Shown here one piece after another: positions 15,414-17,974 of a DNA stretch of 32,000 bases (position 1 is its first letter; every line of letters starts with the position of its first letter). The translations under genes were made by a program, and so were the position numbers. Source of the stretch: Chloroflexota bacterium (GTDB lineage: Bacteria; Chloroflexota; Anaerolineae; UBA4142); contig JACRBM010000076.1 of NCBI GenBank assembly GCA_016219275.1, forward strand, positions 18,255-50,254, given 5' to 3'. The notes under the pieces are model-generated. The model made no database searches and had not been told where the DNA came from. It worked only from the letters and a program-made list of their open reading frames with translations.

Positions 15414-15692
15414 TCATCCACAGACCGGCTCGCGCTTGCCGGTCACCGCAGCGTACATCATCGCCGCCGCGCAACCCACGCCGCTATCTACCGTGATCGC
15501 GTTCGTCGGACAATTGAGCTGGCACGCGCCGCACTCCATACAATTTTCCGCGTGCGCGACCGTGATCGTGCGACCATTGCGATTGAACACCGCGTGCGGA
15601 CAAACCGTGTAACACATTCCACACCCGTTGCATTCAGTCGGATTGAATTGGAGCGTGGTGGTTTGATAGGCGTTGAACACGTTATCCTCCAA
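15414..15692 (-). CDS. hgcB: HgcB, 2[4Fe-4S] ferredoxin partner of HgcA
   Basis: Two ferredoxin motifs are present, CNGCGMCYTVCP and CMECGACQLNCP (the HgcB-typical C(M/I)ECGAC). The conserved GVGCAA Cys and one C-terminal Cys (PVCG) are also present. The start is TTG at 15692 or, more likely, GTG at 15680 after GGAGGAtaac. The gene overlaps or abuts the hgcA stop. Confidence 0.8.
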   Translation of the reverse strand: MEDNVFNAYQTTTLQFNPTECNGCGMCYTVCPHAVFNRNGRTITVAHAENCMECGACQLNCPTNAITVDSGVGCAAAMMYAAVTGKREPVCG

Positions 15693-16680
15693 TCATCCGA
15701 ATGATCGGCAACCCGATCATCAGCGCGATGCCGATGGCGAACATCCACGCCATCACCGGGACATACGTAAAGATTTCGCGTTGGACGCCACTCCGTGAGG
15801 TGAACGTCGTCGAGCCGGTGAAATTCAATGCCAGGAATGCAGTGATGGGTGGAAAAATCAACAGCGGAACAATCGCTTTGCCGGCGCGCAACCACCCCAC
15901 CGCGTCCGCGTTGCCTTGCCACGACGACACGACGAGCGGAAGCGCGACCAACGCGCCGAGCAAAAATCCCTTGGCGCTGAAATCGTGCGTTGGCAGCCAG
16001 GGCAGCAGAATTGGGAACACGACGACGCCGGCGAGAATCGCGGCGACGACCGCGAGCGACGAGACCCAGCCACCGAACAAATAAGCCACTGCCGCGCCAA
16101 TCAACAGCGGAATCAATCCGCCGACGATCTCGACTGGAATGACTGCTAACCGATCACGCAAAGTGAATCGGACGCGGCGCATCTCCGGCGTGGCTTCGCG
16201 GCGCGTGAGATATTCGGACAGATCCGCCGCGCGGACGGGACCGTACTCGACCTTGAAGCTGGTGCGTTTTTTGATTTCGTGCGCGGCAATGCCCGGCGCG
16301 CCGAGTTGCGGCGCGATCACGACGCGATGACTGACCCGGTCGCGCAGCCCGGTCGCTTCGATGCGCTGTGCTAGTTCGTCCGTGCCAAATGTGCCTTTGC
16401 CGGCGGCGCACCAAACATTGATGGCTTGTGTGTCGAGCACCAAGATGTACGCATTCATCCCGCCAAGCGCCGACCGGAGCGCGTCGAAACTGAGCGTGTA
16501 ATTCGCCGTGACAAACACCGGCGAATCCTGGGTCGGATTTCCGAGGGCGTACAATCCTGGCTCGACGCGATGCCCCATCCGATTGATTGCCCAGCGCGCC
16601 AGGATGTGATCCCAGCGATTCGCCCACGTGAGGACACTTGTCGTCGGTCGAACGATCCGATCATTTGTCTCTGACATCAT
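15682..16680 (-). CDS. hgcA: HgcA, corrinoid protein of the mercury-methylation pair
   Basis: The diagnostic cap-helix motif INVWCAAGKGTFGT is present, with the Cys91 codon at 16408-16410. An N-terminal CFeSP-like corrinoid domain is followed by a C-terminal multi-TM domain, and hgcB lies immediately downstream. Confidence 0.9.
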   Translation of the reverse strand: MMSETNDRIVRPTTSVLTWANRWDHILARWAINRMGHRVEPGLYALGNPTQDSPVFVTANYTLSFDALRSALGGMNAYILVLDTQAINVWCAAGKGTFGTDELAQRIEATGLRDRVSHRVVIAPQLGAPGIAAHEIKKRTSFKVEYGPVRAADLSEYLTRREATPEMRRVRFTLRDRLAVIPVEIVGGLIPLLIGAAVAYLFGGWVSSLAVVAAILAGVVVFPILLPWLPTHDFSAKGFLLGALVALPLVVSSWQGNADAVGWLRAGKAIVPLLIFPPITAFLALNFTGSTTFTSRSGVQREIFTYVPVMAWMFAIGIALMIGLPIIRMIGG

Positions 16681-16695
16681 TCTTCCCTCACACGA

Positions 16696-17445
16696 TCACG
16701 GTTTGCGCGCGGTAATGATCGCCGAGAATGGCGCGTGCACGGGCAGCGACGACAAACCGGCATCAAACTTGCCCTTCGGCTCGACCCTGACATCCACAAA
16801 CCCAGCTGCTTGCAATCCGCCGATGTAATCTTGCATATCGAGCGCGCCCGCTACGCACGCGCCCCACGCTTCCAGACTTTTCTGCACCGCGATAGGCAGT
16901 TCGCCATTCGTTACAATATCCGAAACGGAAACTCTGCCGCCCGAACGCAACGCGCGATAAATATCGCGGAACACTTGTGGCTTGTCCGGCGAGAGATTGA
17001 TCACACAATTGGAAATGATCACGTCCGCTTCGCCGTCCGCTACGGGCAAATGTTCGATGTACCCTTCGCGAAACTCGACGTTCGTGACCCCCAGACGCGC
17101 CGCGTTCACGCGCGCTTTGGCGAGCATCTCCGGCGTCATGTCCACACCGATTACGCGACCGGTCGGTCCGACTCTCTGCGCCGCGAGAAAGCAATCGAGT
17201 CCGCCGCCTGATCCCAGGTCTACGACTGTTTCGCCAGGTTTCAAACTGGCAATCGTGATCGGATCGCCGCACCCGAGTGAAAAGTTGGCGATGTCTTCGG
17301 GCACCGCGTTCGCAAGTTGATCGGGATAGTTCGAGTTGCAGTCACACGCGCTCGGACCGCAACAACTGGACGCTTGGCGCGCGATATCCGCATAATGATC
17401 CCGCACCGAACTCCGAATTTCATCTGGCGCAATTACGTTCGACAT
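16696..17445 (-). CDS. arsM: Arsenite S-adenosylmethionine methyltransferase ArsM
   Basis: SAM motif VVDLGSGGGLDCF, an N-terminal Cys cluster SSCCGPSACDC, the conserved SNCVINL Cys and GACVAGA Cys. The start was trimmed to 17445, which is preceded by GGAGGAttgac. Confidence 0.9.
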   Translation of the reverse strand: MSNVIAPDEIRSSVRDHYADIARQASSCCGPSACDCNSNYPDQLANAVPEDIANFSLGCGDPITIASLKPGETVVDLGSGGGLDCFLAAQRVGPTGRVIGVDMTPEMLAKARVNAARLGVTNVEFREGYIEHLPVADGEADVIISNCVINLSPDKPQVFRDIYRALRSGGRVSVSDIVTNGELPIAVQKSLEAWGACVAGALDMQDYIGGLQAAGFVDVRVEPKGKFDAGLSSLPVHAPFSAIITARKP

Positions 17446-17553
17446 GTCAATCCTCCATGGTTTGATTTTATTTTTCGCCGCCGGCAACGCGAATGCTGAC
17501 ATCGGCGTGTCCACTTTTGTAGTACGAATCGGAATCCCTGGGTATGCTCACCC

Positions 17554-17574
17554 AGACATATTGACACTTGTCTA
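17554..17574. promoter_or_regulatory. Candidate ArsR operator 2 (AGACA-N10-TGTCTA) in the arsR-arsM spacer
   Basis: The half-sites and 12-nt AGAC..GTCT spacing match the site at 17926-17947. Confidence 0.45.
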
Positions 17575-17603
17575 TGAATCAGAGCAAAAAAAGAGACACG
17601 CCG

Positions 17604-17924
17604 CTAGCTCTTTTCATCGTTGATCTTGAGCAAGCGGAGAGTCGTCTTTTGTTCCGGGGCAAACGCCGTCATGAGGAGTCCGCAGCAATCCACGACCTTC
17701 TCCTGATTCAATGTGTAAAAGGTCTGCCGCCCTTCTTCGCGCACGCTGACCAGCCCCGCTTCGCGCAAAATCGCGAGGTGATGCGACACGGTCGGCTGGG
17801 CGACGTTCATCTTGGCGACGATGTCGTTCACGCTGATCCATTGGCAACAGCACAGCCGCATAATCTTTTGGCGCGTTTCGTCGGCAAGCGCCTTGGCAAA
17901 ATCCACAGGAGTGATCTTTGACAT
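17604..17924 (-). CDS. arsR: ArsR/SmtB family metalloregulator (second copy)
   Basis: wHTH ISVNDIVAKMNVAQPTVSHHLAILREAGLV. A Cys triplet RLCCCQW occupies the position of the ELCVCDL site, and there is an extra C-terminal vicinal pair VDCCG. Confidence 0.85.
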   Translation of the reverse strand: MSKITPVDFAKALADETRQKIMRLCCCQWISVNDIVAKMNVAQPTVSHHLAILREAGLVSVREEGRQTFYTLNQEKVVDCCGLLMTAFAPEQKTTLRLLKINDEKS

Positions 17925-17925
17925 A

Positions 17926-17947
17926 TAGACAACCTTCTATGCGTCTA
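17926..17947. promoter_or_regulatory. Candidate ArsR operator 1 (TAGACA-N10-CGTCTA) between the -10 box and the arsR start
   Basis: Inverted AGAC/GTCT half-sites 12 nt apart. A third TGTCTA box at 17961-17966 lies inside the promoter spacer. Confidence 0.5.
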
Positions 17948-17974
17948 TTATATCGAAATTTGTCTATTTGTCAA
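17947..17974 (-). promoter_or_regulatory. Consensus sigma-70 promoter for arsR-arsM-hgcAB
   Basis: The minus strand reads TTGACA (17974-17969), a 16-nt spacer, then TATAAT (17952-17947). It lies 22 nt upstream of the arsR ATG in an AT-rich gap. Confidence 0.65.

Follow-up and report, generated by a model that had tools for sequence, protein, structure and literature searches.

Genuine hgcAB genes behind arsM in what is probably an ArsR2-repressed operon of a Chloroflexota bacterium

The presence of hgcA- and hgcB-like genes immediately behind a gene for arsenic methylation raises the question of whether these genes are what they appear to be and, if so, in what sense they belong to the arsenic system beside which they lie. 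The window, i.e. the whole stretch of 32,000 nucleotides that was analysed, carries on its minus strand the genes arsR1-arsC-arsE-arsP-acr3, followed by arsR2-arsM-hgcA-hgcB. We consider it probable that the latter group is a Chloroflexota arsM operon, repressed by ArsR2, which has recruited bona fide hgcAB, and that the former is a separately regulated detoxification operon. The genes, and the promoter of the upstream operon, are as follows.

14393-14941, minus strand: ECF-type sigma-70 factor (54% identical homologue at the same position in related locus L090)
14988-15332, minus strand: 114-aa membrane protein, no family match (62% identical homologue 3' of the arsR2 operon in L090)
15414-15680, minus strand: hgcB, 2[4Fe-4S] ferredoxin, 88 aa, GTG start at 15680 (NF040864, motifs, orthologue N-termini)
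15682-16680, minus strand: hgcA, corrinoid protein of mercury methylation (NF040863, cap helix, transmembrane segments)
16696-17445, minus strand: arsM, As(III) S-adenosylmethionine methyltransferase, 249 aa (NF008823, cysteines)
17604-17924, minus strand: arsR2, ArsR/SmtB repressor, 106 aa (Cys25-27 cluster and Cys80-81 pair)
18006-19121, minus strand: acr3, arsenite efflux transporter (TIGR00832, 429.8 bits, cut-off 282.8)
19218-20261, minus strand: ArsP_1-family permease (PF03773, 247.8 bits)
20258-20599, minus strand: ArsE/MTH895-type thioredoxin-like protein (TIGR00412, 98 bits, cut-off 62)
20577-21014, minus strand: arsC, low-molecular-weight phosphatase-type (thioredoxin-coupled) arsenate reductase (Pfam LMWPc)
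21122-21484, minus strand: arsR1, ArsR/SmtB regulator, likely ATG at 21484 (the mechanical ORF reaches 21562)
21528-21556, minus strand: promoter of the upstream ars operon, perfect TTGACA-N17-TATAAT, 5' of arsR1

The open reading frame coordinates of the earlier note were borne out and its gene identities are correct, with HgcA, HgcB, ArsM and Acr3 all above curated NCBIfam cut-offs; family matches likewise agree with the arsR-arsC-thioredoxin-ArsP-acr3 series that it placed upstream on the same strand. ArsC is recognised by Pfam LMWPc above threshold but stays short of the NCBIfam equivalog thresholds, and the ArsE-type thioredoxin probably starts at an internal Met near 20503. With its arsenate reductase, arsenite efflux pump and regulator, the detoxification set is complete. 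A palindrome 3' of its arsR1 promoter, GGTTGA-N7-TCAACC, is distinct from the ArsR2 operator described below. Mer-family domains, reported as absent, were indeed not found in any of the 30 ORFs of the window that were scanned (10 plus 20, with 8 of the 20 being scanned twice). At the other end of the locus, the 114-aa membrane protein is possibly co-transcribed with the hgcAB cluster.

Curated models and active-site motifs argue strongly that hgcA and hgcB are correctly named. HgcA scores 425.5 bits on NF040863 (cut-off 275), matching model positions 3-322 of 325, and falls below the cut-offs of the paralogue models, i.e. 200.8 bits on the HgcAB-like fusion model of the NF043039/NF043040 system (cut-off 285) and 73 bits on the CFeSP gamma (AcsC/CdhE) model (cut-off 306); the curated-HMM check that had been proposed is thus passed. 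The INVWCAAGKG cap helix is present, with Cys91 encoded by TGC at 16408-16410 (minus strand), and its NVWCAAGK core is invariant across 9 aligned relatives and matches the N(V/I)WCA(A/G)GK motif with the Co-ligating Cys. The C-terminal multi-transmembrane domain is likewise recovered, with hydropathy, used here as the sole guide to topology, being consistent with five segments (hydrophobic stretches at residues 176-232, with room for two helices, 233-256, 266-289 and 302-332). HgcB exceeds the NF040864 cut-off of 99 by little, at 104.9 bits, and this slim margin weighs against our main reading; the expected HgcB-type motifs are all present, comprising two CX2CX2CX3C(P) cluster motifs, CNGCGMCYTVCP and CMECGACQLNCP, and a GVGC motif supplying the Cys equivalent to the strictly conserved Cys73 of ND132. 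The single Cys of its tail (...EPVCG) had been considered atypical, a description that does not hold, as a lone Cys within the last 14 residues is seen in 15 of 74 complete HgcB relatives, and activity remains intact when either C-terminal HgcB Cys is mutated alone, i.e. one Cys suffices (PMC7305189). The start of hgcB is most likely GTG 15680, 1 nt past the hgcA TAA and behind a GGAGGA, since this choice agrees with orthologue N-termini. ArsM scores 309.8 bits on NF008823 (cut-off 263) and 45 bits on the CpaM model, below the cut-off of 180; its As-binding cysteines, C34, C59, C147 and C197, have counterpart cysteines in an alignment with the solved ArsM 5evj, and translation most likely begins at ATG 17445, behind GGAGGA, and not at GTG 17514. 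Judged by these family and motif assignments, the window's hgcAB are genuine mercury-methylation genes directly 3' of an arsenic-methylation gene and an arsenic-type repressor, and their products are predicted to methylate Hg(II). In the sources consulted we found no Chloroflexota HgcAB with demonstrated activity. Because SAM is the methyl donor of HgcAB (PMC11588087), the picture given in the earlier note, of SAM-dependent arsenic methylation being coupled to corrinoid-dependent mercury methylation, is outdated.

Two other readings of the hgcA ORF have to be weighed against these assignments. It is very improbable that the ORF encodes a non-methylating paralogue, of CFeSP/CdhD type or related to the HgcAB-like fusions, even though Pfam detects only a CdhD domain in it, its closest solved structures are CFeSP gamma subunits and it is without an N-terminal Cys/Sec motif: the equivalog score far exceeds those on the fusion and AcsC/CdhE models, the Cys of the cap helix aligns in register and does not vary, a transmembrane domain is present and an HgcB-type ferredoxin gene adjoins hgcA. 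With respect to the N terminus, neither a PCUGP (Sec) nor a CC extension was found on the window's HgcA, an in-frame stop lying 15 nt upstream with the intervening residues, SCEGR, unlike either motif; members of its clade start with M-(M/I)-S/D, and the Cys/Sec motif, carried by most HgcA proteins, is frequent rather than defining (Haft & Gwadz 2022). The same stretch gives rise to the second reading, that ArsM and HgcA form one selenoprotein in which the in-frame arsM TGA is decoded as selenocysteine. The two genes are in one frame across ...ARKP-TGA-SCEGR-MMSE..., and both N-terminal Sec motifs on HgcA and ArsM-domain fusion selenoproteins are known. The arsM stops in the five other loci with arsM and then hgcA are, however, TGA, TAA, TAG, TGA and TAA, with differing frames and in one case an intervening gene, the residues flanking the TGA are unlike PCUGP, and hgcA has its own RBS and an ATG that agrees with orthologue N-termini. 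The chance of such a fusion is thus minimal, and as far as the comparison goes it is refuted. The junction is as had been described, with the arsM TGA (16698-16696) followed by 15 nt that include GAGGGA and then by the hgcA ATG at 16680.

Having retained separate arsM, hgcA and hgcB genes, we turn to their regulation, to which the following elements are relevant.

14300-14329, minus strand: first canonical terminator-like hairpin 3' of the cluster, 12 pairs followed by a T-rich tail
17560-17575, no strand assigned: operator O3, ATAGACAAGTGTCAAT, one mismatch to the palindrome, between arsR2 and arsM
17586-17643, minus strand: candidate intrinsic terminator/attenuator, an imperfect hairpin (17595-17643) over the arsR2 stop codon and then U7 (17586-17592)
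17925-17940, no strand assigned: operator O2, ATAGAAGGTTGTCTAT, between the -10 hexamer and the arsR2 ATG, abutting the start codon
17947-17974, minus strand: arsR2 promoter, perfect consensus TTGACA-N16-TATAAT (same architecture in 12 relatives)
17952-17967, no strand assigned: operator O1, ATAGACAAATTTCGAT, filling the -35/-10 spacer

The promoter reported 5' of arsR2 is a perfect match at 17974-17947. A 16-bp palindrome, ATAGAC-N4-GTCTAT, is matched three times in the window, each time close to arsR2 (span 17560-17967), against an expectation of 0.21 matches; three were reached in 0 of 100 shuffles. Of the 35 matches that 556 kb of related loci contain, 29 sit at arsR2 loci. The geometry TTGACA-a-O1-ATAAT-N5-6-O2-ATG is invariant, and the layout is retained in about 20 related loci, with O3 always preceding the first structural gene, i.e. 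standing before the RBS of arsM or hgcA. Among the sequenced arsR2 loci that are without hgcAB, all three operators are present in L092 and L097, O1 and O3 in L090, L094 and L095, O1 and O2 in L096, and O2 only in L093; the symmetric change to ATCGAC/GTCGAT in L002 preserves the palindrome. This layout supports control of arsM-hgcAB by ArsR2, with binding of ArsR2 itself being the presumed step.

ArsR2 is a winged-helix HTH_5 protein (PF01022, 48.8 bits; NF033788, 85.1 bits, cut-off 55), the cysteines of which are conserved in 13 orthologues. It scores 52.6 bits on NF007528, below the cut-off of 97, and, with the register set manually against the HTH, its positions equivalent to the R773-type CxCxxC As(III) site in helix alpha3 are not Cys. 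The closest solved relatives are HlyU, SrnR and BigR, and the sensing Cys42 of BigR aligns with ArsR2 Cys25. Since the Cys pattern is unlike that of R773 or of the ND132 regulator, and given the BigR correspondence, it is possible that a persulfide or redox signal is the effector, although induction of the arsM operon is probably by an arsenical. The proposed sequence of events would begin with ArsR2 dimers occupying the three palindromes, at O1 in the promoter spacer, at O2 over the arsR2 transcript start and RBS, and at O3 just 5' of the structural genes. Release of the repressor would follow when its conserved cysteines, (C)CC and CC, capture a thiophilic ligand (As(III) or methyl-As(III) being the likeliest), and transcription would then enter the tightly packed arsM-hgcA-hgcB. 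ArsM would methylate As(III) with SAM, and HgcAB, also SAM-fed, would be expressed under the same signal, such that the capacity for mercury methylation is predicted to track arsenic rather than mercury exposure.

The claim of a single ArsR-gated transcription unit divides. ArsR gating is supported, on firmer grounds than in the earlier note, by the conserved operator triad, one copy of which lies directly 5' of the structural genes, whereas a single transcript is not established, there being a candidate terminator/attenuator between arsR2 and arsM and no consensus promoter visible at O3. The hairpin (-23.5 kcal/mol, z = -3.2, equalled by 0 of 200 shuffles) and its U7 contradict the statement that no terminator-like structure occurs here; a simple scan missed the hairpin because its loop exceeds the limit of the scan. 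It could terminate most transcripts, so that one transcript is not assured, and expression of arsM-hgcA-hgcB, the gaps in which are 15 nt and 1 nt with an RBS for each gene, would require either read-through of hairpin and U7 or a promoter at O3, where no sigma-70 consensus was recognisable. One repressor may control two transcripts, a monocistronic arsR2 ending at the hairpin/U7 and an arsM-hgcAB transcript whose promoter overlaps O3 and is either non-consensus or read by an alternative sigma factor, an arrangement that we regard as possible but doubtful. In its favour, besides the strength of the window hairpin, the end of a T-run lies 9-15 nt (mostly 11) 5' of O3 in 12 of 17 loci by criteria set in the present analysis (2 nt in L028), O3 lies 13-29 nt past the arsR2 stop and just 5' of the RBS of the next gene, L002 keeps O3 despite deletion of arsR, and the ECF sigma factor gene at 14393-14941 is just 3'. 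On the other hand, no conserved -35/-10 pair could be aligned around O3, the 17-40 nt between O3 and the start codon in some loci are tight for a -10 element, transcript start and RBS, and in roughly half of the loci the hairpin is lacking or only weak, which implies that termination is not a conserved feature.

Whether hgcAB belong to this operon in an evolutionary sense was addressed by comparison of related loci. The survey proposed for arsM directly 5' of hgcA yielded the exact arsR2-arsM-hgcA-hgcB order in L021, L023 and L061, and the same order with one extra gene inserted in L013 and L025; arsR2-hgcAB-arsM occurs in L001, L003 and L011, and partially in L010 (hgcAB-arsM, with the upstream end cut off) and L002 (arsR deleted). 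When 10 ArsR2 loci were sampled from the regulator side, blind to hgcA, a SAM methyltransferase was found downstream in all 10, of ArsM size in 9 (ArsM orthology being confirmed in the seven with DNA), and hgcAB in 2, identifying arsR2-arsM as the conserved core. Six of the eight loci without hgcAB have a simple arsR-arsM layout, sometimes with additional genes, e.g. one for a 204-aa methyltransferase, or a small ORF; a full ars operon is appended in L094, and L090 has the 204-aa methyltransferase only. From these gene orders, the conserved evolutionary unit is most likely arsR2-arsM, with hgcAB a labile insert 5' or 3' of arsM, i.e. an occasional passenger and not a fixed component of a dedicated mercury-arsenic system. 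It does not follow that the adjacency is coincidental: that hgcAB merely hitch-hike, as chance arrivals in an arsenic island that are tied to arsenic neither in regulation nor in function, is quite unlikely. The low frequency of hgcAB among the blindly sampled loci, their variable position, interleaved on the ArsM tree, and the lack of an ars homologue in 57 of 88 surveyed hgcA loci (26 of the 44 with both flanks) point that way, but the linkage recurs in both gene orders, on 12 independent contigs or more and with HgcA identity as low as about 63%, hgcAB always lie within the O3-controlled unit with junctions of 15 nt or overlapping, an unrelated, arsenic-responsive ArsR type controls hgcAB in ND132, and hgcAB adjoin acr3, arsC or arsP in other phyla (present survey; PMC7438021). 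The two insertion positions, always 3' of O3, and the use of SAM by both enzymes also lead to the converse proposal, that HgcAB in this Chloroflexota lineage are a working part of arsenic metabolism and not an accidental mercury methylase, which we regard as unlikely. If it were true, one possibility would be that arsenicals or thio-arsenicals receive a methyl group in a SAM- and corrinoid-dependent reaction that complements ArsM under anoxia.

Simple arsR-arsM operons, e.g. in Rhodopseudomonas palustris, comprise an ArsR repressor gene and then arsM, and are arsenite-inducible; in the window, hgcAB have joined the unit and arsR is followed by a third operator. The pairing of an HgcAB-like fusion with CpaM (NF043039/NF043040) similarly joins a corrinoid HgcA-type protein with a class-I SAM methyltransferase, but the window proteins are below both cut-offs and its methyltransferase is a true ArsM. 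Also close is the arsR2-hgcA-hgcB locus of Pseudodesulfovibrio mercurii ND132 (Goni-Urriza 2020; Gionfriddo 2022 bioRxiv/2023 AEM), in which a regulator gene of the ArsR/SmtB type stands directly 5' of hgcAB in the same orientation. [quoted passage not shown] The regulator gene is the sole ars gene at this ND132 locus, and the organism is devoid of ArsM; the regulator, DND132_1054, is of CxC...CxC type (C47, C49, C86, C88) as opposed to (C)CC 25-27 and CC 80-81 in the window (a spacing of 39 versus 55 residues, compared by Cys pattern only), and no operator is described in the portions of the account drawn on here, in contrast with the triad predicted for the window; control in ND132 was shown by experiment, whereas the window locus is known from sequence. 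The adjacency of hgcAB to ars genes, including arsM, is also on record (McDaniel 2020, Fig. 6, PMC7438021; restated in Gionfriddo 2022 and in PMC10349881), with hgcAB flanked by acr3, arsC, arsM and arsR in that figure, and the novelty of the arrangement was thus overstated. As both adjacency and ArsR control are published, the locus is a clean example of a described link and not a new kind of system. The MAG neighbourhoods (McDaniel 2020, Fig. 6, and the Rifle MAGs noted by Gionfriddo) represent the same phenomenon, arsM and arsR included; those reports are descriptive and do not define the regulator family, the operator, the arsR2-arsM core or the two hgcAB positions set out here, and the palindrome triad and its conserved layout are new in the present analysis.

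On the minus strand of the window, nine genes lie at close spacing, given here in transcription order with their scores against curated models where these are most informative:

21122-21484, minus strand: arsR1, regulator gene at the head of the arsC-arsE-arsP-acr3 genes
20577-21014, minus strand: arsC
20258-20599, minus strand: ArsE-type thioredoxin
19218-20261, minus strand: ArsP_1 permease
18006-19121, minus strand: acr3 (429.8 bits; cut-off 282.8, curated model)
17604-17924, minus strand: arsR2, ArsR/SmtB repressor ahead of arsM-hgcAB
16696-17445, minus strand: arsM (309.8 bits; cut-off 263, curated model)
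15682-16680, minus strand: hgcA (425.5 bits; cut-off 275, NCBIfam equivalog)
15414-15680, minus strand: hgcB (104.9 bits; cut-off 99, a narrow pass)

Each of the gene names proposed in an earlier note on this DNA is thus backed by curated models, and the comparison with paralogues that it recommended favours a true HgcA, because the protein scores above the equivalog cut-off and below those for both the HgcAB-like fusion (200.8 vs 285) and the CFeSP gamma subunit (73 vs 306). The cap-helix signature INVWCAAGKG is present as claimed, with its Cys codon at 16410-16408, NVWCAAGK being invariant among nine aligned relatives, and hydropathy analysis of the C-terminal multi-TM domain gives five hydrophobic segments, as expected. 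A structure search with HgcA returned no solved HgcA, only CFeSP gamma subunits, which match over the corrinoid domain alone. The exact HgcA protein is recorded on just one further contig (a 3.2-kb Logan contig that yields no additional context), the nearest hgcA loci being those of Chloroflexota/Anaerolineales MAGs. An NCBI protein from a Chloroflexi MAG, encoded on a 95-kb contig, has the same sequence as ArsR2. The ArsM cysteines line up with those in solved ArsM structures. The junction between arsM and hgcA is as the note described it (arsM TGA, 15 nt including GAGGGA, hgcA ATG), and the most likely hgcB start is the GTG at 15680, 1 nt past the hgcA stop and behind GGAGGA, in agreement with orthologue N-termini and an independent gene call. 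The reported absence of mer genes also holds, in that no Mer-family domain was detected in 30 scanned ORFs across the window.

The arsM stop TGA shares a frame with hgcA (16681-16698; ...ARKP*SCEGRMMSE...); a selenocysteine read-through fusion of ArsM and HgcA was considered and rejected, the in-frame TGA not being conserved in five other arsM-then-hgcA loci, such that the frame sharing is a coincidence. A hidden N-terminal PCUGP extension on the window HgcA is likewise absent. Directly after hgcB (14393-15332) lie genes for a 114-aa multi-pass membrane protein without a family match and an ECF sigma factor; homologues of both (62% and 54% identical) are found together behind the arsR2 operon at L090:5047-6066 (L numbers denote related loci compared with the window), and the pair may constitute a sigma/anti-sigma-like module tied to arsR2 operons.

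[quoted passage not shown] It is not: 15 of 74 complete HgcB relatives carry a lone Cys within their final 14 residues, alignment counts in Cooper et al. 2020 (PMC7305189) imply exactly one Cys downstream of Cys73 in about a quarter of 2432 HgcB sequences, and mutation of either C-terminal HgcB Cys alone left methylation unaffected in the same work. At the conserved GVGC cysteine, equivalent to Cys73 of Pseudodesulfovibrio mercurii ND132, the window hgcB has TGC. The codon is an in-frame TGA at L001:7185-7187 and at the equivalent position in L003 and L010, and the contig of P0014 has a further case in a 69-aa HgcB call. The HgcB frame remains conserved past the TGA (AYAMMRAAVLGQQEPVCGTC*), and a selenocysteine form of HgcB is likely encoded; in Haft & Gwadz 2022, 6.4% of HgcB proteins have selenocysteine at the equivalent position. 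For L001, L003 and L010, a SECIS-like hairpin following the TGA was rejected, since the folds are no better than those of shuffled sequences (z -0.3 to -1.1, not significant).

Evidence for ArsR control of arsM-hgcAB comes principally from a 16-bp palindrome, ATAGAC-N4-GTCTAT, three copies of which occur at up to 2 mismatches in the 32-kb window, all inside 17560-17967 (0.21 expected; three reached in 0 of 100 shuffles):

17952-17967: O1, filling the interval that separates the -35 hexamer of the arsR2 promoter from its -10 hexamer
17925-17940: O2, past the -10 hexamer and ahead of the arsR2 ATG
17560-17575: O3, after arsR2

The arsR2 promoter is, as had been stated, a perfect TTGACA/TATAAT, and that of arsR1 is likewise perfect. 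The layout TTGACA-a-[O1]ATAAT-N5-6-[O2]ATG is near-invariant across 12 loci, O3 is always directly ahead of the ribosome-binding site of the next structural gene, be it arsM or hgcA, and of the 35 motif matches in a total of 556 kb from related loci, 29 fall at arsR2-type loci. In L002, from which arsR has been deleted, all three sites are kept, O3 with a symmetric change (ATCGAC/GTCGAT) that preserves the palindrome. These observations argue strongly that the triad is the phylogenetic footprint of a site for a dimeric repressor, presumably ArsR2. The arsR1 promoter region (21500-21520, minus strand) has its own palindrome, GGTTGA-N7-TCAACC, just past the -10 hexamer; its dissimilarity to the ArsR2 operator suggests that two neighbouring ArsR regulons exist here without overlap. 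The MAG with the arsR-less locus (GCA_016215025.1) has lost arsR from its hgcAB-arsM locus by a clean deletion (L002:5820-6000) with O1, O2 and O3 retained, and a different contig of it (L090:4001-4321) has a gene for an ArsR2 of 86% identity, beside that for a 204-aa methyltransferase; regulation in trans would seem to have arisen naturally here.

The earlier note had based a single transcription unit in part on the lack of any terminator between 17974 and 15414. A candidate is in fact present, an imperfect hairpin at 17595-17643 leading into U7 at 17586-17592 and spanning the arsR2 stop codon (-23.5 kcal/mol, z = -3.2, 0 of 200 shuffles folding as well), which a consensus scan missed because its loop exceeds the length that the scan allows. 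A terminator conserved throughout after arsR2 is rejected: the T-run is kept, but only about half of the loci have a stable hairpin ahead of it, that of the window being among the strongest. By our own criteria, the T-run, with or without a hairpin, ends 9-15 nt (11 most often) before O3 in 12 of 17 ArsR2 loci, the distance in L028 being 2 nt; this near-fixed spacing suggests a role at the DNA level, for instance as an UP-element or in DNA bending, beyond that of a terminator tail. Manual inspection of the 17 loci revealed no conserved hexamer pair for a sigma-70 promoter at O3, and an Rfam scan of 14000-22000 gave no riboswitch or other RNA, with two sub-threshold chance matches only. Expression of arsM-hgcAB would involve either read-through of an attenuator-like element or an unrecognised promoter at O3, and the predicted operator footprint is better evidence for ArsR gating than the read-through argument.

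The linkage was analysed from both sides. The hgcA survey covered 88 loci (8 from genomes and 80 from metagenomes, the window's duplicate being left out) with HgcA 44-77% identical to that of the window, and found arsM directly upstream of hgcA, an arrangement for which the note had advised searching, in other loci. The arsR2-containing arrangements are as follows:

arsR2-arsM-hgcA-hgcB (window order): L021, L023 and L061; L013 and L025, each with one extra gene inserted
arsR2-hgcA-hgcB-arsM: L001, L003 and L011; partially L010, truncated at its upstream end, and L002, which has lost arsR
arsR2-hgcAB, no arsM in view: L028, L029, L031, L033 and L042

At least one ars homologue is present at 31 of the 88 loci, or 18 of 44 when both flanks are present, and hgcAB adjoins acr3, arsC or arsP in other lineages (e.g. 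L008, L053, L059, L062 and L068). The ArsR2 family comprises more than 120 clusters at ≥70% identity, from which ten members were chosen blind to hgcA, on contig size alone. All ten loci have a class-I SAM methyltransferase downstream, which is of ArsM size in nine; the seven of these with DNA are ArsM orthologues (57-89% identical to that of the window), the other two being judged from size and Pfam matches only. Only two of the ten have hgcAB. The O3-position site occurs in five of seven hgcAB-less loci with DNA, and all three sites in L092 and L097. In a neighbour-joining tree of ArsM, which is without support values and indicative only, the three kinds of locus (hgcAB downstream of arsM, upstream of it, or lacking) are intermixed. 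The ArsR2-side sample and the tree together indicate that the conserved unit is arsR2-operator-arsM and that hgcAB is a labile insert, always inside the predicted ArsR2-controlled unit.

The 204-aa class-I SAM methyltransferase, which has a Cys-rich C terminus, recurs in ArsR2 operons (L090:4380-4994, L091:5776-6390, L092:4389-5003 and L096:3621-4235) and is absent from the window; it scores below every curated family cut-off, its best matches being the DVU_1556 family and MenG-like models. In the hgcAB-less L094:4001-8312, arsR2-arsM is followed directly by arsR-arsP-arsE-arsC-acr3, i.e. the two modules of the window in opposite order.

With respect to the signal, 13 ArsR2 orthologues keep (C)CC in helix α2 (25-27) and a CC pair in α5 (80-81), a pattern that differs both from the CxCxxC site of R773 ArsR and from C47/C49/C86/C88 of ND132 ArsR2. 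ArsRs that bind arsenicals typically have vicinal cysteine pairs, and arsM as the invariable partner likewise favours either As(III) or methyl-As(III) as the probable effector. The closest solved relatives are HlyU, SrnR and BigR, and Cys25 aligns exactly with the sensing Cys42 of BigR; a persulfide or redox signal could also be the effector. Building on the gene identities, tight packing, operator footprint and conserved linkage that the analysis demonstrates, we propose as the most likely mechanism that ArsR2 would repress the promoter of its own gene and, acting through O3, the structural genes, that an arsenical would release it, and that joint expression of arsM, hgcA and hgcB would follow. 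ArsM would then methylate As(III) with SAM and, as the methyl group of HgcAB also comes from SAM (Zheng et al. 2024; PMC11588087), a likewise SAM-fed HgcAB would be switched on by the same signal.

Divergent from arsR1, on the plus strand (21680-31304), are genes for a PhnD-like periplasmic binding protein, a GAF/HAMP/HisKA_3 histidine kinase and a LuxR-type response regulator (25159-25806), then an FeS subunit, an NrfD-type membrane subunit and a 1092-aa molybdopterin oxidoreductase. Arsenic respiration was considered for the Mo-enzyme cluster (26049-31304) and rejected, since the catalytic subunit scores 445 bits with TtrA, its nearest model, and only 125 bits with ArrA. All its model scores are below cut-offs, that for TtrA (tetrathionate reductase) far below its own, and the cluster is most closely described as TtrA-like, not Arr-like.

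We know of no settled account of the native role and regulation of HgcAB, and methylmercury production is poorly predicted by hgcAB abundance. The window locus provides a compact, testable case outside the Desulfovibrionales: its repressor family is defined, an operator of 16 bp is predicted, and nature supplies a set of variants (arsR2-arsM alone, arsR2-arsM-hgcAB, arsR2-hgcAB-arsM and arsR-deleted). If ArsR2 does sense arsenicals, the Hg-methylation capacity of these widespread subsurface and sediment Chloroflexota would track arsenic exposure, which would be relevant where both elements contaminate a site.

The earlier note took the arrangement to be, to its knowledge, functionally undescribed; the link between hgcAB and ars genes and its ArsR control are, however, already in print. 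McDaniel et al. 2020 (Fig. 6; PMC7438021) show acr3, arsC, arsM and arsR flanking hgcAB, and PMC10349881 reports that 14 of 31 confirmed methylators have arsR ahead of hgcA. Gionfriddo et al. 2022/2023 report experiments in which an ArsR-like regulator of ND132, co-transcribed with hgcAB, controls hgcAB and responds to arsenic and SAH, not Hg, and describe co-localisation of hgcAB with arsC, arsB and arsM in other genomes. The window thus joins a published pattern as a new example that is unusually complete, and the gain is incremental; the present analysis contributes the ArsR2 family of Chloroflexota together with its three operators, arsR2-arsM as the core, and the observation that hgcAB varies in position.
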